Positions 33,264-61,255 of a stretch of 64,000 nt of DNA are shown here, piece by piece; within the stretch, counting starts at the first letter, position 1; each line of letters starts with the position of its first letter. The notes beneath the pieces were generated by a model. That model was not told the origin of the DNA and ran no database searches. It was given only the letters and a program-made list of their open reading frames with translations. The stretch is from Escherichia coli. Lineage in GTDB: Bacteria; Pseudomonadota; Gammaproteobacteria; Enterobacterales; Enterobacteriaceae. Location: assembly GCF_003991155.1 (NCBI RefSeq), contig NZ_CP031293.1; one strand, written 5' to 3'. A program made the translations under genes and the position numbers.

Positions 33264-35006
33264 ATGATAAAACCGACGTTTTTACGCCGGGTGGCCATTG
33301 CTGCTCTGCTCTCAGGAAGTTGTTTTAGCGCCGCCGCCGCGCCTCCTGCGCCGCCCGTCTCGTATGGTGTGGAGGAAGATGTCTTCCACCCGGTACGCGC
33401 GAAACAGGGAATGGTAGCGTCTGTGGACGCCACTGCCACTCAGGTGGGGGTGGATATTCTCAAGGAGGGCGGGAATGCCGTTGATGCCGCCGTGGCGGTG
33501 GGCTACGCGCTGGCGGTAACGCATCCGCAGGCAGGGAATCTGGGCGGTGGTGGTTTTATGTTAATCCGCTCGAAAAATGGCAATACCACGGCTATCGATT
33601 TCCGCGAAATGGCACCCGCCAAAGCGACCCGCGATATGTTCCTCGATGATCAGGGCAACCCGGACAGCAAAAAATCACTCACTTCGCATCTGGCTTCCGG
33701 CACACCGGGTACGGTAGCAGGTTTCTCGCTGGCGCTGGATAAATACGGCACCATGCCGCTGAACAAAGTCGTGCAGCCCGCGTTTAAACTGGCACGCGAT
33801 GGTTTTATCGTTAACGACGCGCTGGCTGACGATCTCAAAACCTACGGTAGCGAAGTGTTGCCGAATCACGAAAACAGTAAAGCTATCTTCTGGAAAGAGG
33901 GCGAGCCGCTGAAAAAGGGCGACACGCTGGTGCAGGCGAACCTGGCAAAGAGCCTGGAGATGATTGCTGAAAACGGCCCGGACGAATTCTATAAAGGCAC
34001 GATTGCGGAACAGATCGCCCAGGAGATGCAGAAAAACGGTGGCTTGATCACTAAAGAAGATTTAGCAGCCTATAAAGCGGTCGAACGTACTCCGATAAGC
34101 GGCGATTATCGCGGGTATCAGGTTTACTCCATGCCACCGCCATCCTCCGGCGGGATCCATATCGTACAAATCCTCAATATTCTGGAAAACTTCGATATGA
34201 AGAAATACGGCTTTGGCAGCGCCGATGCGATGCAAATCATGGCAGAAGCGGAGAAATACGCCTACGCCGACCGCTCGGAATATCTTGGCGACCCGGATTT
34301 TGTCAAAGTACCGTGGCAGGCGCTGACCAATAAAGCCTATGCCAAATCTATTGCCGATCAAATTGATATCAATAAAGCGAAGCCATCCAGCGAAATTCGC
34401 CCCGGCAAGCTTGCGCCTTATGAGAGTAATCAAACTACCCATTACTCAGTGGTGGATAAAGACGGCAACGCGGTGGCGGTGACCTATACGCTGAACACCA
34501 CCTTCGGGACGGGCATTGTCGCGGGCGAGAGCGGTATTCTGCTTAATAACCAGATGGATGATTTCTCCGCCAAACCGGGCGTACCGAACGTTTACGGGCT
34601 GGTGGGCGGTGATGCCAACGCGGTTGGGCCGAACAAACGCCCGCTGTCGTCGATGTCACCAACCATTGTGGTGAAAGACGGTAAAACCTGGCTGGTTACC
34701 GGTAGCCCTGGCGGGAGTCGGATTATTACCACCGTGCTGCAAATGGTGGTGAATAGCATCGATTATGGCATGAATGTCGCCGAAGCGACCAATGCACCGC
34801 GTTTCCACCATCAGTGGTTGCCGGACGAGCTGCGTGTCGAAAAAGGGTTTAGCCCGGATACGCTCAAGCTGCTGGAAGCAAAAGGTCAGAAAGTGGCGCT
34901 GAAAGAGGCGATGGGCAGTACACAAAGCATTATGGTTGGGCCGGACGGTGAGTTGTACGGCGCATCTGACCCGCGCTCGGTGGATGATTTAACGGCGGGG
35001 TATTAA
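33264..35006 (+). CDS. ggt: Gamma-glutamyltranspeptidase
   Basis: ORF track 33237..35006; start moved to MIKPTFLRR giving 580 aa; signal peptide; autoprocessing Thr region (...QTTHYSV...). Confidence 0.95.
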   Translation: MIKPTFLRRVAIAALLSGSCFSAAAAPPAPPVSYGVEEDVFHPVRAKQGMVASVDATATQVGVDILKEGGNAVDAAVAVGYALAVTHPQAGNLGGGGFMLIRSKNGNTTAIDFREMAPAKATRDMFLDDQGNPDSKKSLTSHLASGTPGTVAGFSLALDKYGTMPLNKVVQPAFKLARDGFIVNDALADDLKTYGSEVLPNHENSKAIFWKEGEPLKKGDTLVQANLAKSLEMIAENGPDEFYKGTIAEQIAQEMQKNGGLITKEDLAAYKAVERTPISGDYRGYQVYSMPPPSSGGIHIVQILNILENFDMKKYGFGSADAMQIMAEAEKYAYADRSEYLGDPDFVKVPWQALTNKAYAKSIADQIDINKAKPSSEIRPGKLAPYESNQTTHYSVVDKDGNAVAVTYTLNTTFGTGIVAGESGILLNNQMDDFSAKPGVPNVYGLVGGDANAVGPNKRPLSSMSPTIVVKDGKTWLVTGSPGGSRIITTVLQMVVNSIDYGMNVAEATNAPRFHHQWLPDELRVEKGFSPDTLKLLEAKGQKVALKEAMGSTQSIMVGPDGELYGASDPRSVDDLTAGY

Positions 35007-35011
35007 GGTTA

Positions 35012-35040
35012 GCGGCCCTCTTAGTGGGAAGAGGGCCGTA
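35012..35040. terminator. Bidirectional hairpin between ggt and yrhB frame
   Basis: cggccctctt ... aagagggccg inverted repeat read from sequence. Confidence 0.5.
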
Positions 35041-35043
35041 TTG

Positions 35044-35328
35044 TCAGGGCAAGCCGAAGGTAGCCTTTTTTATTTCATAATCCTGTAGATATTCTTCCAG
35101 TGGCTTTGCCGTTCCCAGAGAATGAATTTCACCACTGCCTTTATCAATAATAAAAGGTGCGTTACCAGCTAAGCGCGCGGCCTCATCTCCAGATTCAAGA
35201 AATTATTGTGATTCGAAACAGAAATACCAGCCCTGGCTAAAACGTCCATGCAGAGTGATGACGACAGGGAGATCTGCATCATCAAGGTAATGGTTCGCTT
35301 TCGCGAATGCGTCGTGATAAGTAATCAT
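35044..35328 (-). pseudogene. yrhB: yrhB-like reading frame interrupted by in-frame TAA (41 aa N-terminal part plus 52 aa continuing frame)
   Basis: Hand translation of minus strand: MITYHDAFAKANHYLDDADLPVVITLHGRFSQGWYFCFESQ-stop(35203..35205)-FLESGDEAARLAGNAPFIIDKGSGEIHSLGTAKPLEEYLQDYEIKKATFGLP-stop(35044..35046). The continuous 94-codon frame matches my recollection of the length of K-12 YrhB. Confidence 0.55.
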
Positions 35329-35777
35329 AATTATAATAAATATTATTGTTGATCGTTATATTATTATTCTTGCGTTATACTTTGAGAAAAGACGCGTTCA
35401 TCTTCGTCAAAGATATTATTAAATGCTGGTTTTGAAAAAAGTTCATCGGGTAATATACAGTCACGAAATAAGTATCTGCTAATGTTTTGTGATTTCTTTT
35501 TCAGAACGTCGAACGGGATTTTCTTATTTAAGATATCAGAATCTTATGATTCGGGTGAAATTCTAACTAAATCAACATGTCACTAAAATCATCATAGCCA
35601 TTAGCTATTTCGGCTAAAATAGAGATTACATGTCTTCGGTCCATCTCACTTAAGGAGTGTAGTTCCGTTGTAAGTTTTTCCATAGCTTGCATTGCTAAGT
35701 TTCGAACAAGGAATTTTCTGCTGGTAATCTCTAAAAAGATGGCATGGTTTATAATGATTTTTGTTACCTTTTGATTA

Positions 35778-36272
35778 TTATGAACAACTGTCCATGATTT
35801 CGTTTAAGAATGAAGAGAAATCACTAAACGAACTGAATATATTTTCTGTGCCAATATTATCTCTAATTTCAAAAAAGTTATTTTTAATGTCATAAGTAAA
35901 TATTGAAATGCTATCATCCCCGATCACTAACCGTTCTTGTAGATCAGGGTTTATGAAATCATCATTATTTCTATAAAATTCATTTACGGCAAAAAGGTTT
36001 TTAACTGAAGGTTCTGGAATCGAGAGGCTGAATAATCGTAATCCATTAACTTCGAATCCATCCATTGCTCTTAAAAAAGTAAGATAATCAGGTTGATTAT
36101 TAAAGAGAATACTAACTTCATTACATAACTTCTCCAGGCAATTAGTTGGATTAGAATTAAATTTTATTTGGATTATACTTTCAATAAATGATTCCTTGAG
36201 CGGTGCTTCAAATGGATAGTCTAAATCATTCATCATTTTTTTTAATTTATTTATTTGGGTTTTAGTCATCAT
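35778..36272 (-). CDS. Putative immunity protein for the upstream Hcp-HNH effector (yrhA-type position)
   Basis: ORF track 164 aa, AT-rich, start overlaps effector stop (ATGA); position immediately downstream of a polymorphic toxin gene. No catalytic motif recognised. Confidence 0.55.
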   Translation of the reverse strand: MMTKTQINKLKKMMNDLDYPFEAPLKESFIESIIQIKFNSNPTNCLEKLCNEVSILFNNQPDYLTFLRAMDGFEVNGLRLFSLSIPEPSVKNLFAVNEFYRNNDDFINPDLQERLVIGDDSISIFTYDIKNNFFEIRDNIGTENIFSSFSDFSSFLNEIMDSCS

Positions 36273-37447
36273 TTTGTGGGTTCCATAATATTTTTCATGG
36301 GAGGATAAATTGAGCCAGATGGAATGGCCCAGGGAGTGATTTTGCTTTCACCTACTAATATTCCCTTAGCTATTCGTGATTGCATGTTAGTAAAAACTTT
36401 ATGATATGGTTCGTTTTCGATTAATACTAAATTTTCGAAATCATTAGTACCACCATCATCTAGAGATAGTTTATGGTGAACATTATAATTTAGAGGAACA
36501 TTGCCCTTTCTCATTCTTAAAAGGTCTTCGGCGTTGAATCTTCCAGATGCTTCGGAGGTTTTTGCAAGTTTGATAAGAAAATTTTTTCTTACAGTTTTAT
36601 TAAACTCCTTTCGTAAGTTAGCTAAGTCTTTTGAAGGTCTCTTAATGTATATTATTTCTATTATGTCTATACCATCAAGAAGTTTTTGTTGACCTCTAAG
36701 TTTGCCTAAGTAACTATTTATTTCTGTATATGTATCAACATTAGAACGCTTTGTTAAAAGAATAGATGCTGTTGCTATCGCTATGCCCGCTGTTTTTTCA
36801 TTTAGTATTTGATCATAGCCTTTTATTGCATCTCCACCCAGTTTTTCCGCAGTATCTCTGAATCCTTCAATGTTCCCATTGTATACGCCACCAGCAGCAA
36901 GTAGCCTGCCAATAGCTTTGCTGTTTAACGTTTTGAAACGATTATTTGTTTGGTTTTTTGAATTTGGTAAAAACAAACAGTTATAATTTTCAGGGAGTGC
37001 CAAATAGCTGAACTCGGTATTTGCGATAATCTGTTGACAGAGGATAAATTCATAACTAACAGTTATTGTTTCTGTATCCAGTTGATTTTCAATGATCTGA
37101 TGATGAATAGCCGATAAAAAAGCGCCTCTTAGTTGTATATAATAATACTTTTCCCATCTACCAAATCTATTTATTCGATAGAAGTCAAATCCCATAAATA
37201 ATTGTTCATTATTGTTAATGGAATTAATAAATAATGGAGTGCTTTTATCAATTAATTTACAAAATGTTATACCATGGAACTGTGAACCAAGCCCCGTATT
37301 AGTAATACTATTTAAGAGTGAGAATGTAAATATTTCATCCTCATGCCCGCTCTGCCAGCGATTACCTGTAGACTCAGAAGTCCCACAACCTGCGGAGATG
37401 CTTCCTTGTTGTTCTCCCGTTACTGTCAGGTAAACAATATTACTCAT
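36269..37447 (-). CDS. yhhZ: Hcp-domain protein with C-terminal HNH-type nuclease toxin domain (Hcp-ET type, yhhZ)
   Basis: ORF track 392 aa. N-terminus MSNIVYLTVTGEQQGSISAGCGTSESTGNRW...GHEDEI matches the Hcp fold signature; C-terminus NYNVHHKLSLDDGGTNDFENLVLIENEPYHKVF carries an HNH-like motif. Confidence 0.82.
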   Translation of the reverse strand: MSNIVYLTVTGEQQGSISAGCGTSESTGNRWQSGHEDEIFTFSLLNSITNTGLGSQFHGITFCKLIDKSTPLFINSINNNEQLFMGFDFYRINRFGRWEKYYYIQLRGAFLSAIHHQIIENQLDTETITVSYEFILCQQIIANTEFSYLALPENYNCLFLPNSKNQTNNRFKTLNSKAIGRLLAAGGVYNGNIEGFRDTAEKLGGDAIKGYDQILNEKTAGIAIATASILLTKRSNVDTYTEINSYLGKLRGQQKLLDGIDIIEIIYIKRPSKDLANLRKEFNKTVRKNFLIKLAKTSEASGRFNAEDLLRMRKGNVPLNYNVHHKLSLDDGGTNDFENLVLIENEPYHKVFTNMQSRIAKGILVGESKITPWAIPSGSIYPPMKNIMEPTK

Positions 37448-37682
37448 CCCTGAAAAGTCCTTTTATGGCATGCTATTTTATTAATGGCACTATTATGCTT
37501 GTTAATTGTTATTTATTTACTCCAGGAAATTGTAGGCGTATATATTAATAATAAAATATTACACTTTAGGACGTAATTATGAGGTAAATCTCAATATATT
37601 TATTGGGCAAATAAATACATTAAAGGAAGATATGCCGATTTTGAATGACGCCCTTTTTCCATCTCAGAAAAAGGGCACTATC

Positions 37683-43601: not shown

Positions 43602-43640
43602 AATTACTGCGAGCTTGCTCGCAGTAATTCATTTCTCTTA
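43602..43640 (+). terminator. Palindromic terminator after gntU
   Basis: aattactgcgagc-ttg-ctcgcagtaatt perfect palindrome followed by T-rich tract. Confidence 0.55.
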
Positions 43641-43729
43641 TCTCCTCTCTTCATCTTTTTGATCTCTCTCGCAAATTTACCTGCTAATAATCCGTTCTAA
43701 TCACTGCCTAAAGATCGCAGGAGATAAAG

Positions 43730-45826
43730 ATGGAAAAGCACGGAGCTGAATTGCTTTTACAGCGGATGTTAGGAAATACCACCGCTACTTTCAGGGAAGG
43801 GCAATGGGAAGCCATAGATGCAGTGGTTAATCAGCGGCGAAAACTGCTGGTTGTACAGCGCACCGGCTGGGGGAAAAGTGCCGTGTACTTCATCGCCAGT
43901 AAAATCTTCCGCGATCGCGGCGCTGGCCCGACAATTATCATCTCTCCTTTGCTTGCCCTGATGCGTAACCAGGTTGCCGCCGCTGAACGGTTAGGTATTA
44001 CGGCTGAAACGTTGAATTCTACAAACAGGGAAGAATGGCAGCGCATTAGCGATAAGTTGCTGCAAGGTGAGGTCGATTGCTTGCTGGTTTCCCCGGAACG
44101 TTTGGCAAACCAGGACTTTATCGAAACGGTTTTATATCCTATAGCCGATCGTATTGGCTTGCTTGTGGTCGACGAGGCGCACTGCATCTCTGATTGGGGC
44201 CACGATTTTCGCCCGGATTACCGACGTATATTAGATATTTTGCGCCAACTGCCTGCGAATACCCCTGTTCTGGGTACAACCGCGACAGCGAATAACCGTG
44301 TTGTTGAGGATATCCGTCAGCAATTGGGTGACATTGTGATTCAGCGTGGAACGCTGGCTCGCGAAAGTTTGGCGCTTGATGCCTTAGTCTTAGGAGAACA
44401 GTCATCCCGTCTGGCATGGTTAGCAACGGTTATCCCTCAGTTTTCCAAATCGGGAATTGTTTATACCCTGACGACTCGCGATGCTGAACTTGTCGCCGAG
44501 TGGTTAAGGAAAAATGGTATCAGTGCATTTGCTTACTACAGCGGCGTGACTTGTGAAGGCGCGGAAGATTCTAATACTGCCAGGGAATATCTGGAGCAGG
44601 CACTGCTGGCAAATAAAATCAAAGTGCTGGTCGCGACGACGGCATTAGGTATGGGGTTTGATAAACCTGATTTAGGTTTCGTCATTCATTATCAGATGCC
44701 GGGGTCTATTGTCGGTTACTACCAACAGGTGGGGCGTGCCGGGCGTGCTATAGATTCCGCAGTTGGCATATTGCTTTGTGGTGGTGAAGACCGCGCTATT
44801 CATCAATTCTTCCGTGAAAGCGCCTTTCCTGCGGAGGCGCAAATTCATGAAATACTCAACGTACTTAGCGAGAATGACGGTCTTACCCTACGAGGCATTG
44901 AACAACGGACGAATCTTCGTTATGGGCAAATAGAAAAAGCACTGAAATTATTGGTAGCGGAAAATCCATCGCCTGTGGTGTATACCGAGAAATTATGGCG
45001 CAGAACTATCGTCAGTTTTTCTCCTGATCATGAACGAATTAACCATTTGATGAATCAGAGAAAAAGTGAGCTGGCAGACGTTGAAAGCTATATCACGACC
45101 AAGGAGTGCAAAATGCAATTTCTGCGCCGTGCACTCGATGAGCCAAGTGCCGAACGTTGTGGTAAATGTAGCAGTTGTCTTCAACATCCGTTATTGTCGC
45201 CCGACATTGATAGCGGCTTACTCCATGCGGCAAATTTATTTATTAAACACGCTGACCTGCCGTTAAATCTCAATAAACAGGTGGCAGCTGGGGCTTTTAC
45301 GCAATACGGATTTAAAGGGAACTTGCCTGCGGGTTTACAAGGATCTACGGGGCGAATCCTTTCTCGTTGGGGAGATTCCGGGTGGGGAAAGCAGGTAGCA
45401 CAGGAGAAAAAAACGGGGCGCTTAAGTGATGAGCTGGTAGAAGCATGTGCGGAAATGGTTTGCCAACGCTGGAATCCGCATCCTGAACCAACCTGGGTAT
45501 GCTGCGTTCCTTCATTAAGGCACCTCGACCTGGTTCCTGATTTTGCCCGGCGACTGGCGGCGAAACTTGGCTTACCTTTTATTGATGCCATTGAAAAAGT
45601 CGTGGACAATCCACCGCAGAAAATGCAGCAAAACCGTTTTCACCAGTGTCAAAATCTCGACGGGGCGTTTGTGATTACCCCTCCTTTGATGCCAGGTCCG
45701 GCGTTGCTGGTTGACGATATCGTGGATTCTGCATGGACGCTGACAGTTCTGACAGCACTGTTACGCAAGGCAGGTTGCCCGACGGTTTATCCTCTTGCCC
45801 TTGCTTCTACCTCGGTAAAAAATTGA
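43730..45826 (+). CDS. RecQ-family SF2 helicase fused to Cys-cluster and C-terminal ComFC-like phosphoribosyltransferase-type domain
   Basis: ORF track 698 aa. Walker A QRTGWGKS, DEAH box VVDEAHCISDWGHDFRPDY (RecQ-type), TATA motif, motif VI QQVGRAGRA, Cys cluster CGKCSSC, C-terminal PRT-like loop ALLVDDIVDSAWT preceded by ComF-like segment. By my recollection not present at this position in K-12. Confidence 0.8.
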   Translation: MEKHGAELLLQRMLGNTTATFREGQWEAIDAVVNQRRKLLVVQRTGWGKSAVYFIASKIFRDRGAGPTIIISPLLALMRNQVAAAERLGITAETLNSTNREEWQRISDKLLQGEVDCLLVSPERLANQDFIETVLYPIADRIGLLVVDEAHCISDWGHDFRPDYRRILDILRQLPANTPVLGTTATANNRVVEDIRQQLGDIVIQRGTLARESLALDALVLGEQSSRLAWLATVIPQFSKSGIVYTLTTRDAELVAEWLRKNGISAFAYYSGVTCEGAEDSNTAREYLEQALLANKIKVLVATTALGMGFDKPDLGFVIHYQMPGSIVGYYQQVGRAGRAIDSAVGILLCGGEDRAIHQFFRESAFPAEAQIHEILNVLSENDGLTLRGIEQRTNLRYGQIEKALKLLVAENPSPVVYTEKLWRRTIVSFSPDHERINHLMNQRKSELADVESYITTKECKMQFLRRALDEPSAERCGKCSSCLQHPLLSPDIDSGLLHAANLFIKHADLPLNLNKQVAAGAFTQYGFKGNLPAGLQGSTGRILSRWGDSGWGKQVAQEKKTGRLSDELVEACAEMVCQRWNPHPEPTWVCCVPSLRHLDLVPDFARRLAAKLGLPFIDAIEKVVDNPPQKMQQNRFHQCQNLDGAFVITPPLMPGPALLVDDIVDSAWTLTVLTALLRKAGCPTVYPLALASTSVKN

Positions 45827-47028
45827 TGAATCTTTCAGCCAATGCACAAGCGACCCTCCTGCTAACCAGCGATTTTTCTCGCGCGGCGGCGAGTGAGTAT
45901 AAACCTCTTAGTAATAGTGAATGGGGGAAGTTTGCATTATGGCTGAAGCACCAACGTATCAGTCCCGCCGATCTTCTGGTGCCGCAACCGCAAGAGAAAC
46001 TTACAGGCTGGAGCGATCCGCGTATTTCTCAGGAGCGTATTCTTGGCTTGCTGGCGCGTGGCCATAGTCTGGCGTTGGCGGTAGATAAGTGGCAACGCGC
46101 CGGTTTATGGATCTTAACCCGCGGAGATGCCGATTATCCCGTTCGCTTGAAAAACCGATTGCGAACGGATGCACCTCCCGTTTTATTTGGCTGCGGGAAT
46201 AAAGCATTACTGCAAGCGGAAGGTATGGCGATTGTTGGCTCGCGAGATGCTCCGACTGCCGATTTGCGCTATACCCAACAACTGGCAGCGAAACTGGCCC
46301 AACAGGGGATTTGCGTTATCTCTGGTGGTGCGCGAGGTATTGATGAATGTGCAATGGCGTCGGCACTGGAGGCCGGGGGAACTGCCGTTGGCGTATTAGC
46401 TGATAGCTTGTTAAAAACGAGTACGTTAGTGAAATGGCGTGAAGGGCTTATAGCAGGCAACCTGGTGTTGATTTCGCCGTTTTACCCAGAGGTACGTTTC
46501 ACCGTCGGCAATGCGATGGCGCGAAATAAATATATTTATTGCCTTGCTGAAAGCGCAATGGTTGTACGTGCGGGAATGACCGGTGGAACGATAACCGGAG
46601 CGATGGAGGCGTTAAAACATCAGTGGCTGCCTGTGCAGGTTAAACCAAATCAGGATGTGCAATCAGCCAATTCACGATTAGTAGAAAATGGGGCGTCATG
46701 GAGTGCTGAACAGGCTGAGAATGTGACGATCAGACTGCCAGACGTTCCTGGGCTGATGTATGACAGAGCACTCCGTAACGCTCAACCAGAATTGTTTTCG
46801 CTGCACGAAGATGACGCAAATTACGCAGTGATGCCCTCGCATACCCCTGTCGATTTTTATCAACTTTTTGTGGCGGAACTGGCGATCCTTGCAAAGGAAT
46901 CGATAAGTATTGAAAGGCTGGCGTCTTGTACTGGTTTAACCATCGAACAAATTAGTGTGTGGCTGAACCGCGCAGAAGAAGAGGGAAGGGTTATCCGATT
47001 GGGCGAAGGTCATTATCAGTTCAGGTAA
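45826..47028 (+). CDS. DprA/Smf-family (SLOG superfamily) protein, paralog of housekeeping DprA
   Basis: ORF track 45733..47028; likely start ATG 45826 overlapping the helicase stop as TGATG (400 aa). Rossmann-type DprA core AIVGSRDAPTADLRYTQQLAAKLAQQGICVISGGARGIDECAMASALEAGG, N-terminal SAM-like region, C-terminal winged-helix-like tail. Confidence 0.8.
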   Translation: MNLSANAQATLLLTSDFSRAAASEYKPLSNSEWGKFALWLKHQRISPADLLVPQPQEKLTGWSDPRISQERILGLLARGHSLALAVDKWQRAGLWILTRGDADYPVRLKNRLRTDAPPVLFGCGNKALLQAEGMAIVGSRDAPTADLRYTQQLAAKLAQQGICVISGGARGIDECAMASALEAGGTAVGVLADSLLKTSTLVKWREGLIAGNLVLISPFYPEVRFTVGNAMARNKYIYCLAESAMVVRAGMTGGTITGAMEALKHQWLPVQVKPNQDVQSANSRLVENGASWSAEQAENVTIRLPDVPGLMYDRALRNAQPELFSLHEDDANYAVMPSHTPVDFYQLFVAELAILAKESISIERLASCTGLTIEQISVWLNRAEEEGRVIRLGEGHYQFR

Positions 47029-47031
47029 TAA

Positions 47032-47067
47032 AACAGGTGCCGCCTCTGGTTGTGTGCAGCACCTGTT
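47032..47067. terminator. Bidirectional hairpin between DprA-like gene and yhgN
   Basis: aacaggtgccgc ... gcagcacctgtt stem (11 of 12 paired) read from sequence. Confidence 0.5.
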
Positions 47068-47073
47068 TGAACC

Positions 47074-58648: not shown

Positions 58649-58719
58649 GCCTTTATTTAGGAAAAGTGTCCAGAGGGGGCGAGGGTTATCGGGGAGTATA
58701 ATTTCGCCATTCAGCAAGA

Positions 58720-60237
58720 ATGGAAAGAATAATGCAAAACGGAAAATGGATTTTGACCTCGCTGGTAATGACTTTTTTTGGCATCCCCATACTGGCGCAA
58801 TTTTTGGCAGCGGTTGTTGCCATGCTGGGGGCCGGGCTTGCCGCTATTCTTGAGGTTTGCAATTTACTCTTTACGCCAACAATTTATCTTCTACTCAACG
58901 TCTTTATGCTGACGCTGGGGGCGATAATCATATTTTTCTCTGGTCGCGTGTGGACTGGTGATAGCGCACCAGAAAAAAGAGAAATAGCCGCCTGGCGACA
59001 ATGCTTTTTTCTCTTACCCGCGCTATTAACCCTGATTGGCTGGATAATCGCGCTACATCTGGCAGATTATCAACTTCGCCAGATGGGAGCCGGTTGGTTG
59101 GCAAACCTTATGCTTCCCTGGTTGGGCGTTTTTACAGTCTCATTCGTCGGTGGTGAGTACTGGTGGATAGTCATTATTCCCGTTGGCGCGCATATCAGTT
59201 TTTCACTGGGATACGGCTGGCCGACCAGACACCCTTTAACCGGCACCTCCGGTCTACGTTGCCGTAATTTACTTCTGTTCATTCTTCTCTTACTGGGTAT
59301 TGTCGCTGGTTATCAGGCTTATTTATATAAACAGCTTAATCCCGGCGTCGGTGTGCGTGAAAATATTGATACCTGGGCCTGGCGACCCGATAAACTTAAT
59401 AATCAACTGACGCCACTGCGTGGTAAACCACAAATTCAATTTACGCAAAACTGGCCGCGACTCGATGGCGCTACGGCGGCGTACCCCATTTATGCCTCTG
59501 CATTTTATGCATTAAGTGTAATACCAGAGGATTTTCACGTTTGGGATTATCTGGATAACTCTCGTACGCCAGAAGCATATAACAAAATCGTTAACGGTGA
59601 TGCCGATATTATTTTCGTGGCGCAACCTTCCGATGGGCAAAAAAAACGCGCTGAGAAATCGGGCGTCACTTTGCTGTACACGCCATTTGCCCGTGAAGCG
59701 TTTGTTTTCATCGTCAATGCGGATAATCCGGTTAATTCCCTGACTGAACAACAAGTGCGTGACATTTTTAGTGGCGAAATTACCAACTGGCGCACGGTTG
59801 GCGGTAAGGATCAGGAGATCCAGACCTGGCAACGCCCGGAAGACTCTGGCAGCCAGACAGTGATGCAATCACAGGTCATGAAAAATGTCCGCATGATCTC
59901 GCCGCAGGAAACCGAAGTGGCAAGCATGATGGAGGGAATGATTAAAGTCGTTGCCGAATACCGTAATACAAACAACGCAATAGGCTACACCTTCCGCTAT
60001 TACGCAACACAAATGAATGCCGATAAAAATATAAAACTGCTAGCGATTAACGGTATTGCACCGACTGCGGAAAATATTCGTAACGGCAAATATCCGTATA
60101 TCATCGATGCCTTTATGGTAACGCGGGAAAATACTACGTCAGAAACACAAAAACTGGTCGAATGGTTTTTAACGCCGCAGGGACAGAGTCTGGTGGAAGA
60201 TGTGGGCTATGTGCCGCTGTATCCAACAATGAAATAA
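58720..60237 (+). CDS. Membrane-anchored PstS-like (PBP type 2) binding-domain protein: N-terminal polytopic domain fused to periplasmic binding domain
   Basis: ORF track 505 aa; about 200 aa hydrophobic N-terminus then PstS-like motifs GATAAYPIYASAF, VAQPSDGQKKRAE, INGIAPTAENIRNGKYPY. The region corresponds to the yzgL pseudogene position of K-12 as I recall it. Confidence 0.7.
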   Translation: MERIMQNGKWILTSLVMTFFGIPILAQFLAAVVAMLGAGLAAILEVCNLLFTPTIYLLLNVFMLTLGAIIIFFSGRVWTGDSAPEKREIAAWRQCFFLLPALLTLIGWIIALHLADYQLRQMGAGWLANLMLPWLGVFTVSFVGGEYWWIVIIPVGAHISFSLGYGWPTRHPLTGTSGLRCRNLLLFILLLLGIVAGYQAYLYKQLNPGVGVRENIDTWAWRPDKLNNQLTPLRGKPQIQFTQNWPRLDGATAAYPIYASAFYALSVIPEDFHVWDYLDNSRTPEAYNKIVNGDADIIFVAQPSDGQKKRAEKSGVTLLYTPFAREAFVFIVNADNPVNSLTEQQVRDIFSGEITNWRTVGGKDQEIQTWQRPEDSGSQTVMQSQVMKNVRMISPQETEVASMMEGMIKVVAEYRNTNNAIGYTFRYYATQMNADKNIKLLAINGIAPTAENIRNGKYPYIIDAFMVTRENTTSETQKLVEWFLTPQGQSLVEDVGYVPLYPTMK

Positions 60238-60262
60238 CGCTCGAGAGAAAGGAATCAGCGCA

Positions 60263-61255
60263 ATGAATAAATTCACCGGTGTTTTACTATTAGGTACGGC
60301 GCTACTGGCGGGATGTGTCGACCGGGAAGGGTACTATAACAGCGTCAGGGAAGAAGACAGCCATGGACTGACGTCTCTGCGGGGGCAACCTGAATTACGT
60401 TACAACGATGATTGGTCAAGATGGCCGAGAGTGTACGGCGCTACAGCCTTATACCCGCTGTATGCCTCCGCGTATTATGAATTAGTACCCGAGCCAAAAG
60501 ATAAGGATCGAACCTCGCTGGCCTGGCAGGCGTATGGTTTGCAACAAACCCGAACAGCTGAAGCCTACGATAGTCTGATTAAGGGTACCGCGACGGTTAT
60601 TTTTGTTGCACAACCGTCGGAAGGACAGAAAAAACGTGCAGAAGAAGCAGGTGTTAAACTCAAATATACCGCTTTCGCCCGCGAAGCCTTTGTCTTTATC
60701 GTTGATATCAAAAACCCGGTTAATTCACTTAGCGAACAGCAGGTCAAAGACATTTTTAGCGGTAAAGTGAGTCGCTGGAATAAAGTGGGCGGCGGTGACG
60801 AAAGTATAAAAGTCTGGCAGCGGCCAGAAGATTCTGGAAGCCAAACGGTTATGAAGGGACTGGTTATGCAAGATACTCCAATGCTGCCAGCCAAAAAATC
60901 CACTGTTATCGATCTTATGGGCGGTTTAATTACCGAAGTCGCCGACTACCAAAATACACCATCTTCTATTGGATACACCTTCTACTATTACGTCACACGT
61001 ATGAATGACAATATGCTCAAAATGCGCAAACAGATCAAACTGCTGGCTATAAATGGCGTTGCACCTACAGAGGAAAATATCCGTAACGGCACTTATCCGT
61101 ACATAATTCATGCTTATATGGTGACGCACGAAAACCCTACGCTGGAAACACAGAAATTCGTCGACTGGTTTTTAAGCCCGCAGGGACAGCAATTGGTAGA
61201 GGATGTGGGCTATGTGCCGATTTATGACGCATCATCCGAATCATCAGGACAATAA
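60263..61255 (+). CDS. PstS-like (PBP type 2) lipoprotein, paralog of the upstream binding domain
   Basis: ORF track 330 aa; lipobox LLAGC; same PstS-like motifs (GATALYPLYASAY, VAQPSEGQKKRAE, INGVAPTEENIRNGTYPY). Confidence 0.7.
   Translation: MNKFTGVLLLGTALLAGCVDREGYYNSVREEDSHGLTSLRGQPELRYNDDWSRWPRVYGATALYPLYASAYYELVPEPKDKDRTSLAWQAYGLQQTRTAEAYDSLIKGTATVIFVAQPSEGQKKRAEEAGVKLKYTAFAREAFVFIVDIKNPVNSLSEQQVKDIFSGKVSRWNKVGGGDESIKVWQRPEDSGSQTVMKGLVMQDTPMLPAKKSTVIDLMGGLITEVADYQNTPSSIGYTFYYYVTRMNDNMLKMRKQIKLLAINGVAPTEENIRNGTYPYIIHAYMVTHENPTLETQKFVDWFLSPQGQQLVEDVGYVPIYDASSESSGQ

Follow-up and report, generated by a model that had tools for sequence, protein, structure and literature searches.

The DprA-like gene rqlI of Escherichia coli almost certainly starts at the ATG that overlaps the stop codon of the helicase gene rqlH, and the 431-codon frame that begins further 5' is almost certainly an accidental, E. 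coli-specific over-extension. We analyzed the locus in a 64,000-nucleotide stretch of the E. coli contig NZ_CP031293.1 (the window), where the gene pair is the published rqlH-rqlI operon, known under the alias PsyrTA as a toxin-antitoxin and anti-phage system. Very probably, RqlI is the DprA-like antitoxin of RqlHI/PsyrTA with a length of 400 residues, its translation is coupled by reinitiation at the ATG at position 45826, and the ATG at position 45733 is accidental. Both the system and the 400-residue form of RqlI are already known, and the question of the start is an ordinary annotation problem. Of 5426 complete E. coli genomes, 1650 carry the rqlH-rqlI locus, flanked by gntU and yhgN.

RqlH matches the PADLOC PsyrT model at E=0 (1061.7 bits) over model positions 5–687 of 689. 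RqlI matches the PADLOC model PDLC03927 PsyrA at E 5.5e-202 (669 bits) over model positions 1–397 of 398, which correspond to residues 32–431 of the long open reading frame (ORF). The toxin gene lies directly 5' of the antitoxin gene on the same strand and overlaps it, as is the order in PsyrTA. Pfam recovers DEAD and Helicase_C domains in RqlH along with weak matches to RecQ_Zn_bind and Pribosyltran, the NCBIfam model recQ_fam scores 252.8 (cut-off 219.8), and RefSeq names the product 'RecQ family ATP-dependent DNA helicase'. The Pribosyltran score of 18.6 is under the cut-off of 26.3, so that RqlH is called a PRTase on the strength of its full-length match to PsyrT and of published work (PMC4670107). 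The features of the locus are listed in Table 1.

Table 1. Features of the rqlHI locus in window coordinates.
Feature	Position	Strand	Evidence
Terminator-like hairpin 3' of gntU, parting rqlHI from the gnt operon	43602..43629	+	terminator scan
AGGAG Shine-Dalgarno sequence of rqlH, 6 nt 5' of its ATG	43719..43723	+	
rqlH (psyrT), toxin helicase, 698 codons	43730..45826	+	PADLOC PsyrT, Pfam, RefSeq
5' extension of 31 codons in the PGAP-annotated long ORF	45733..45825	+	
Stop/start junction TGATGA: rqlH TGA 45824-45826, rqlI ATG 45826-45828, second rqlH-frame TGA 45827-45829	45824..45829	+	sequence reading
rqlI (psyrA), DprA-like antitoxin, 400 aa, preferred gene model	45826..47028	+	PADLOC PsyrA, homologues, literature
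Inverted repeat aaacaggtgc / gcacctgttt with 18-nt loop, between convergent rqlI and yhgN	47031..47068	.	sequence reading

The inverted repeat between rqlI and yhgN is possibly a bidirectional terminator; a simple terminator scan made no call at this repeat. A promoter scan of the + strand detected no sigma-70-like site 5' of rqlH or rqlI.

Direct inspection agrees with an earlier sequence-only reading of this DNA, according to which the longest ORF starts at an ATG inside the helicase gene in another frame and a second ATG overlaps the helicase stop codon. The long ORF (45733..47028, + strand, 431 codons) overlaps the helicase gene by 94 nt. ATG 45826 lies in the same frame, 31 codons further 3', and the two genes therefore overlap either by 94 nt or by 1 nt (TGATG), in the latter case with one base common to the helicase TGA and the ATG. 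The rqlH frame closes with tandem stops, TGA TGA. The short form starts with MNLSANAQATLLL, the N-terminal sequence that the earlier reading had given for it, and the extension comprises the 31 residues MDADSSDSTVTQGRLPDGLSSCPCFYLGKKL. Further in-frame TTG codons of the long ORF are located at 45775 and 45823. The two frames are offset in such a way that the third codon position of the helicase is the first position of the DprA-like frame. The extension most likely represents an out-of-frame reading of the rqlH 3' end, and is untranslated as a part of RqlI.

The comparison with homologues was based on 119 representatives of non-E. coli homologue clusters and, at the DNA level, on 77 orthologous loci of species other than E. 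coli. Of 80 loci, 26 escaped a first N-terminal regular expression, among them those of Pseudomonas and of relatives in the alphaproteobacteria, and a relaxed motif left only three unrecovered. In all 119 homologues the N-terminus MNLS/T..AQATLLL is found at the methionine equivalent to ATG 45826. The register is identical in 100 of them, and 19 carry an insertion of 4–16 residues after MN.S. None of the 119 representatives covers residues 1–31 of the long ORF in the homologue alignments. At the DNA level, an in-frame stop closes the frame fewer than 31 codons 5' of the conserved ATG in 53 of the 77 loci, and does so within two codons in 18. No alternative ATG, GTG or TTG is present upstream in 60 of the 77 loci, and an upstream ATG occurs in only three. 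An extension that no homologue has or conserves, read in a frame that is closed in most orthologous loci, makes it extremely unlikely that RqlI is a 431-residue protein initiated at ATG 45733 with a 94-nt dual-coding overlap, as in RefSeq, even though this is the longest ORF and the choice of PGAP.

The junction ATG, on the other hand, is present in every locus, and is the sole start conserved among the 77 from other species. The helicase stop could be located in 70 of these loci, and in 69 of the 70 the conserved ATG lies no more than 4 nt from it (45 loci have ATGA, 12 have a 1-nt TAATG or TGATG overlap, and 12 have a spacer of 1 nt). Such a recurrence of the stop/start overlap across loci is far from chance. 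Relatives close to E. coli have the codons AAT GGA TGA at the junction, where E. coli has AAT TGA TGA. The ubiquity of the junction ATG also bears on initiation at TTG 45823 or TTG 45775 in place of ATG 45826, the probability of which we consider negligible. Both codons are in frame within the open stretch, and TTG 45823 is only one codon 5' of the ATG. In relatives, however, the codon at −1 is TGG, TTC, CTC, CTA or GGG, with TTG restricted to two loci (L078 and L089), and a start codon at −17 is confined to the window, L089 (TTG) and L004 (ATG). Both TTG codons were rejected because neither is conserved.

The pattern of substitutions in the overlap follows the helicase gene. The entropy at positions −93 to −1 amounts to 1.42, 0.50 and 0.29 for the three positions of the DprA-like frame; the peak at the first of these means that the third codon position of the helicase is the most variable. 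The helicase-only region further upstream displays the same pattern (1.66, 0.80 and 0.60), and 3' of ATG 45826 the entropy switches to 0.63, 0.51 and 1.42. Variability in the 93 nt tracks the helicase frame only, with no constraint from a second frame, which argues against the 431-residue form. The sequence-only reading had leaned towards ATG 45826 and 1-nt coupling, and had named conservation of the upstream 31 codons as a check. That check upholds its choice: the longer N-terminus is not conserved among homologues, the upstream frame is mostly closed or lacks a start, and the substitution pattern is that of the helicase alone.

ATG 45733 is formed by the adjoining codons GCA|TGG, which encode Ala and Trp in rqlH. 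The site encodes Gly-Trp in 50 of 52 relatives, and the base before TGG in the 52 is C (29), T (18), A (4) or G (1). The nearest outgroup, L089 (72% identical), has CTG at the position of ATG 45733 and keeps the TGATGA junction; the lack of the upstream ATG so close to E. coli is a further argument against the longer protein. By this comparison, ATG 45733 owes its existence to a GCA codon for Ala that is specific to E. coli and precedes a conserved Trp codon, TGG. The two codons happen to spell ATG, and the frame 3' of it is open by chance. It is very unlikely that this E. coli-only Gly-to-Ala change in RqlH (GGN to GCA) created an internal start that yields a minor 431-residue RqlI independently of termination. 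If it did, the isoform would represent a young overlapping-gene extension, and could supply antitoxin when translation of rqlH is cut short, as in O157:H7, whose rqlI is intact and whose rqlH is a pseudogene.

Variation within E. coli was assessed in seven alleles, which differ by about 1–2%. ATG 45733 is kept in all seven, a point in favor of the longer form that says little either way given a diversity of only about 2%. Downstream of 45826, 11 of 14 SNPs fall on the third position of the rqlI frame. The extension contains two clean SNPs, too few for a statistic; both are non-synonymous in the hypothetical extension (D7N and Q12P, the latter a Gln/Pro exchange), which speaks against its being translated. 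RefSeq/PGAP carries the long form in all seven E. coli records examined. One E. coli allele occurs in databases both with 431 residues (RefSeq/PGAP, 945 contigs) and with 400 residues (GenBank submitters, 879 contigs). As PGAP calls the long form and other pipelines the short one, annotation is no evidence either way. The practical value of the analysis lies in annotation: the comparative evidence backs the 400-residue model, and MNLSANAQ... should be used as the N-terminus for expressing, modelling or tagging RqlI/PsyrA.

Shine-Dalgarno sequences were scored by the energy of the duplex with the 3' end of 16S rRNA and ranked among all ATGs of the window. The duplex of rqlH (−7.4 kcal/mol) belongs to the strongest 2%. 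At ATG 45826 the energy is −3.0 kcal/mol, a value equalled or bettered by 39% of window ATGs, and ATG 45733, with a weak Shine-Dalgarno-like GUGGA, also resembles random ATGs at −3.1 kcal/mol. By this measure the start of the 431-residue form is no worse than that of the 400-residue form. The inspection of ribosome-binding sites proposed in the sequence-only reading therefore fails to discriminate between the two ATGs; since both score like random ones, it only shows that rqlI has no autonomous ribosome-binding site.

Weak Shine-Dalgarno pairing at both ATGs fits coupling by termination and reinitiation. The two genes constitute a single operon, very probably driven from 5' of rqlH, which has a strong Shine-Dalgarno sequence. 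Given that rqlI has no such sequence of its own and that one base is common to its ATG and the stop codon of rqlH (TGATG, then a second TGA), ribosomes that end the toxin most likely reinitiate on the antitoxin. The overlap and the weak pairing point to reinitiation; the stoichiometric coupling of RqlH and RqlI raised in the sequence-only reading would follow from the same anatomy. Reinitiation would tie the synthesis of the antitoxin to that of the toxin in a toxin-first operon, an order that is unusual among toxin-antitoxin systems (PMC4670107). Compared with the overlapping stop/start coupling of other bacterial operons (ATGA, TGATG, TAATG), rqlHI shares 1 nt and most of its relatives share 4 nt. 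As in coupled gene pairs, the downstream gene, rqlI, is without a strong Shine-Dalgarno sequence, and overlap or abutment is kept in 69 of 70 loci. The presence of the stop/start overlap throughout the family suggests that antitoxin output may be tied to toxin translation. Such a tie bears on the possible sensing of a phage-induced shutdown of host expression, an idea that is not new.

Both starts might be used, with the 400-residue protein as the major, coupled product and a minor, E. coli-specific isoform of 431 residues supplying some antitoxin independently of termination at the end of rqlH. The open frame with its ATG and the weak GUGGA are consistent with this and nothing else is positive; ATG 45733 is situated in an actively translated, more structured region (local fold of −13.3 kcal/mol, versus −6.6 kcal/mol around 45826), and the extension displays neither conservation nor any sign of selection. 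The chance that both starts are used is accordingly very slim, and we infer the absence of any long RqlI isoform.

In the AlphaFold2 model of the 400-residue RqlI (pLDDT 83.8), a helical domain at the N-terminus is followed by a Rossmann/SLOG domain and, at the C-terminus, by a winged helix. Residues 5–14, the conserved AQATLLL helix, are confidently folded right after Met1 and open the N-terminal domain; in the 431-residue form, MDADSSDSTVTQGRLPDGLSSCPCFYLGKKL would not be part of the N-terminal fold of the family. The best Foldseek match of the model is the three-domain DprA 3MAJ, aligned over the full length (E 2.3e-17, 412 aligned columns), which together with the model bears out the full three-domain DprA layout proposed in the earlier reading; for 3UQZ the alignment spans the N-terminal and Rossmann domains. 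No solved structure of RqlI/PsyrA turned up in a search, which found only DprA and ShosA relatives. RqlI matches Pfam DNA_processg_A at 2e-50, and its family alignment shows invariant GSR and SGGARG motifs. It misses the cut-offs of both DprA equivalog models, with scores of 101.8 for TIGR00732 (cut-off 191.15) and 79.8 for NF008007 (cut-off 495). RqlI belongs to the DprA/SLOG superfamily as a paralogue and is not DprA. It has the three-domain layout in common with canonical DprA/Smf, the recombination mediator of natural transformation (PDB 3MAJ, 3UQZ, 4LJK). Unlike canonical DprA, it has a disordered linker of ~35 residues (306–341), invariably occurs together with a toxin helicase, and has been published as an antitoxin, not as a transformation protein.

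RqlH and RqlI were described in extraintestinal pathogenic E. coli F11 as co-transcribed proteins of 698 and 400 aa, with rqlH first (Russell & Mulvey 2015, PMC4670107). The FLAG-RqlI(1-400) construct of that study, cloned with a primer starting ATGAATCTT..., complements an rqlI deletion, prevents the toxicity of RqlH in MG1655 and is co-immunoprecipitated with the helicase (PMC4670107). The start of the construct corresponds to 45826, and the stop is the same as in the window. The two operons agree in species, lengths and gene order and show no difference of substance, F11 being another E. coli strain with alleles about 1–2% apart. The study adopted the 400-residue model without discussing the upstream ATG or determining the native N-terminus (PMC4670107). 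The full function of the 400-residue form counts against the 431-residue protein as a demonstration of sufficiency, with which a longer isoform may still coexist.

The window proteins match the PsyrT and PsyrA models of PsyrTA (Sberro 2013; Millman 2022, bioRxiv 10.1101/2022.05.11.491447) at full length. The PsyrTA toxin carries a PRTase domain and its antitoxin is DprA-like; anti-phage activity was shown with the system of another donor (bioRxiv 10.1101/2022.05.11.491447). With the native E. coli PsyrTA of strain NILS69, no protection was detected against any of the phages that were tried. Another related system is ShosTA (PMC11961720; PDB 8ZVA, 9VZO), the antitoxin of which combines a SAM-like N-terminal domain with a DprA Rossmann fold, like RqlI. 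ShosA is the second-best Foldseek match of the RqlI model (E 2.9e-15) and also a match by sequence (PADLOC ShosA, 8.1e-27). The likeness extends to a PRTase toxin that causes filamentation and DNA damage, although ShosT, unlike RqlH, is without a RecQ helicase module. Of the two antitoxins, only ShosA was shown to bind ssDNA (PMC11961720); in RqlI, for which the sequence-only reading suggested that DNA binding is retained, it is putative. ShosA is reported not to bind ShosT (type IV; PMC11961720), whereas RqlI co-immunoprecipitates with RqlH (PMC4670107).

The rqlI gene very probably starts at ATG 45826, on the stop codon of the helicase gene rqlH, and its 431-codon RefSeq model, which begins at ATG 45733, is an over-extension. 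Direct reading of the sequence confirmed the layout described in the sequence-only reading, with one ATG inside the helicase gene and another on its stop codon. The latter (45826-45828) lies in the same frame, 31 codons further on, and its A is common to the helicase TGA; the overlap of the two genes is 94 nt with the upstream start and 1 nt (TGATG) with the downstream one, whose product begins with MNLSANAQATLLL. Not remarked on earlier were the in-frame TTG codons at 45775 and 45823, the tandem stops that close the helicase frame at 45824-45829 (AAT TGA TGA), and the register of the frames, in which codon position 1 of the DprA-like gene is codon position 3 of the helicase.

Reading frames at the junction and predicted domains of the 400-residue RqlI
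Feature	Position	Strand	Basis
Helicase ORF preceding the DprA-like ORF (698 codons; TGA stop at 45824-45826)	43730..45826	+	
Long DprA-like ORF (431 codons)	45733..47028	+	Sequence read directly
Helical N-terminal domain (conserved AQATLLL segment forms its first helix, 5-14)	residues 1-91		AlphaFold2
Rossmann/SLOG domain	residues 95-300		AlphaFold2
Disordered linker	residues 306-341		AlphaFold2
C-terminal winged helix	residues 344-400		AlphaFold2

Using PADLOC, we identified the helicase as PsyrT (E=0, 1061.7 bits, model positions 5-687 of 689) and the DprA-like protein as PsyrA (5.5e-202). The helicase belongs to the RecQ family (NCBIfam recQ_fam, 252.8 against a cut-off of 219.8), and its C-terminal PRTase-like region gives a weak Pfam match of 18.6 bits, under the cut-off. 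The DprA-like protein has a Pfam DNA_processg_A domain (2e-50) yet falls below both DprA equivalog cut-offs, and is a paralogue of DprA, as previously proposed. Under the name rqlH-rqlI, the same operon has been described in extraintestinal pathogenic E. coli F11 (PMC4670107); Millman et al. treat it as identical to PsyrTA, which is a toxin-antitoxin pair having anti-phage activity. Prior work already covers the RqlHI/PsyrTA system and its 400-residue protein, as well as the general principle of stop/start coupling. The 3.4-kb segment is 100% identical in many RefSeq genomes and is present in 1650 of 5426 complete E. coli genomes, as a single chromosomal copy between gntU and yhgN-asd. Loci from Citrobacter and a relative (L090 and L091) carry rqlHI at the same site (gntU, rqlHI, yhgN or asd), with proteins 63-65% identical to those of E. 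coli. The presence/absence pattern in E. coli looks like that of an old syntenic locus, not a recent island.

We searched 5.8 billion proteins for homologues of RqlI and took the best 120 cluster representatives. The sole E. coli cluster among them has 431 aa; the other 119 are 48-72% identical, each with at most 93% query coverage. None of these 119 aligned to residues 1-31 of the long ORF. The BLASTP alignments of 100 of them pair the homologue's first residue with query residue 32, and the remaining 19 carry an insertion of 4-16 residues directly after the N-terminal MN.S. The N-terminus M-N-L-S/T-x-x-A-Q-A-T-L-L-L is almost invariant across representatives, and position 1 of the PsyrA profile (398 positions) pairs with long-ORF residue 32.

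Because protein starts are themselves gene-caller decisions, we examined the DNA of orthologous loci. From 80 fetched loci of other species, the junction was analysed in the 77 having a locatable N-terminal motif. An ATGA overlap between the conserved ATG and the helicase stop is present in 45 of the 77; a 1-nt overlap (TAATG or TGATG) occurs in 12 (13 counting the window) and a 1-nt spacer after the helicase stop in another 12, while seven loci were left unassigned (contig end or broken helicase) and one is aberrant. In the frame upstream of the conserved ATG, a stop lies fewer than 31 codons away in 53 of the 77 loci and within 2 codons in 18. No alternative upstream ATG, GTG or TTG was found in 60/77, and an upstream ATG in just three (Klebsiella grimontii, Rahnella laticis and Xenorhabdus griffiniae). 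These stops and missing starts indicate that the longer N-terminus is not conserved: conservation of such an N-terminus by homologues, which the sequence-only reading had set against the short start, is seen neither across the homologous proteins nor across the 77 loci. The junction sequence TC(A/T)TCTTCGGTGAAAGACTCATGAAT, 20 nt upstream of the rqlI ATG, is identical or nearly so in loci L015, L016, L021, L025, L027, L041-L048 and others, from the distant gammaproteobacteria Providencia, Chelonobacter, Psychrobacter, Photorhabdus and HdN1, whose proteins are merely ~50% identical to the E. coli protein. This likeness suggests that the translation-initiation region is under added constraint, or that horizontal transfer has recently taken place among these genera.

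Fifty distinct orthologous sequences were anchored on the conserved ATG, and column entropy was calculated by position in the DprA-like frame. In the putative extension (-93..-1) it is 1.42, 0.50 and 0.29 at positions 1, 2 and 3; variation there falls mainly at helicase third positions, matching the helicase-only region (-150..-94; 1.66, 0.80 and 0.60). Past the conserved ATG, the pattern changes over to the rqlI frame (0.63, 0.51 and 1.42 in rqlI codons 2-40). The 93 nt thus evolve in a single frame, as helicase coding sequence. Seven E. coli alleles display the same switch, with SNPs before 45733 mostly on helicase position 3 and 11/14 SNPs after 45826 on rqlI position 3. The two clean SNPs inside 45733-45825, too few for a statistic, both alter the hypothetical extension (D7N and Q12P, Pro being the majority allele of the latter).

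ATG 45733 straddles an Ala and a Trp codon (GCA TGG, 45731-45736), taking the final base of the former and the first two of the latter; both belong to the helicase motif D-S-A-W-T, in the segment just past the PRTase V-D-D motif. The Ala-Trp pair of E. coli RqlH corresponds to Gly-Trp in 50 of 52 relatives, and the base ahead of TGG is C (29 relatives), T (18), A (4) or G (1). The nearest outgroup (L089, RqlI 72% identical) has GGC TGG, giving CTG in the other frame, and shares the TGATGA junction with E. coli. One lineage-specific residue change in RqlH, Ala for Gly, creates the upstream ATG, which is confined to the E. coli lineage. The stop opening the long ORF, 7 codons before ATG 45733, is the TGA within GTT GAC GAT of the V-D-D motif; chance features of helicase codons thus delimit the long ORF. 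At the junction, close relatives (Silvania L002, Citrobacter L091, K. grimontii L004) read AAT GGA TGA against AAT TGA TGA in E. coli and L089, and the 1-nt TGATG is therefore derived from the family-typical ATGA overlap. The second TGA in E. coli and L089 is the retained ancestral helicase stop, and their helicase has become one residue shorter than in the GGA TGA relatives.

Shine-Dalgarno inspection, previously suggested as a check and run here at window ATGs, does not discriminate between the starts, because both score unremarkably (duplex energy -3.0 kcal/mol at ATG 45826, -3.1 at ATG 45733). The AGGAG of rqlH (43719-43723; -7.4 kcal/mol) is among the strongest 2% of window ATGs. The surroundings of 45826 are A-rich and weakly structured (-6.6 vs -13.3 kcal/mol near 45733). 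In essentially every relative the rqlI ATG overlaps the upstream stop, and rqlI is without its own ribosome-binding site, which is the classic anatomy of termination-reinitiation. This anatomy makes it likely that rqlH and rqlI are translationally coupled in this way.

In E. coli O157:H7 ECP19-198 (L083), the toxin helicase is annotated as a pseudogene (frameshift and internal stop) and the antitoxin gene is intact, an orphan typical of toxin-antitoxin decay. If rqlI translation is coupled to rqlH, its expression in O157:H7 may be altered. In E. coli SJ7 (L088, 1-2965), phage genes directly upstream of rqlI replace the 3' part of rqlH, with the break near window 45758. They encode Com-family regulator, DUF1378, DUF826 and DUF6645 proteins and are presumably Mu-like; the 434-residue PGAP 'DprA' ORF starts within the inserted DNA.

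Russell and Mulvey reported 698 residues for RqlH and 400 for RqlI (PMC4670107). The forward primer of their full-length construct pCWR16 sets a FLAG tag immediately ahead of ATGAATCTT..., and the reverse primer matches window 47010-47028 (PMC4670107); the primer text is two letters short relative to the window, probably a text-extraction artefact. FLAG-RqlI(1-400) partially complements an rqlI deletion, protects MG1655 against RqlH and is recovered together with RqlH in co-immunoprecipitation, and function is lost on removal of the N-terminal 84 residues (PMC4670107). The activity of FLAG-RqlI(1-400) indicates that the 400-residue form is sufficient.

With a 26-sequence alignment as input, the AlphaFold2 model of this form reached a mean pLDDT of 83.8, and in it folded RqlI is predicted to start essentially at Met 45826. 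Its domains and the top Foldseek PDB match, three-domain DprA 3MAJ (E 2.3e-17, 412 columns), support the three-domain layout proposed in the sequence-only reading; ShosA 8ZVA and S. pneumoniae DprA 3UQZ come next. The GSR and SGGARG motifs are invariant in the family alignment. We take these to be the DprA nucleotide-binding and ssDNA-binding loops, a correspondence that serves only as a lead. DNA binding is a feature of ShosA (PMC11961720).

The same allele stands in databases under both lengths (431 residues in 945 contigs, 400 in 879), so the useful outcome is correction of the rqlI annotation. Between the convergent rqlI and yhgN stops, a 10-bp inverted repeat (aaacaggtgc ... gcacctgttt, 18-nt loop) at 47031-47068 may be a bidirectional terminator; a simple terminator scan made no call there. 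According to the RefSeq annotation of locus L001 (offset +29699), a yrhB pseudogene, a truncated yrhD and yrhA lie at ~35000-37450, where an 'Hcp1 family type VI secretion system effector' (tssD) adjoins yhhY, and two neighbouring PstS-family genes follow glgP at ~58700-61000.
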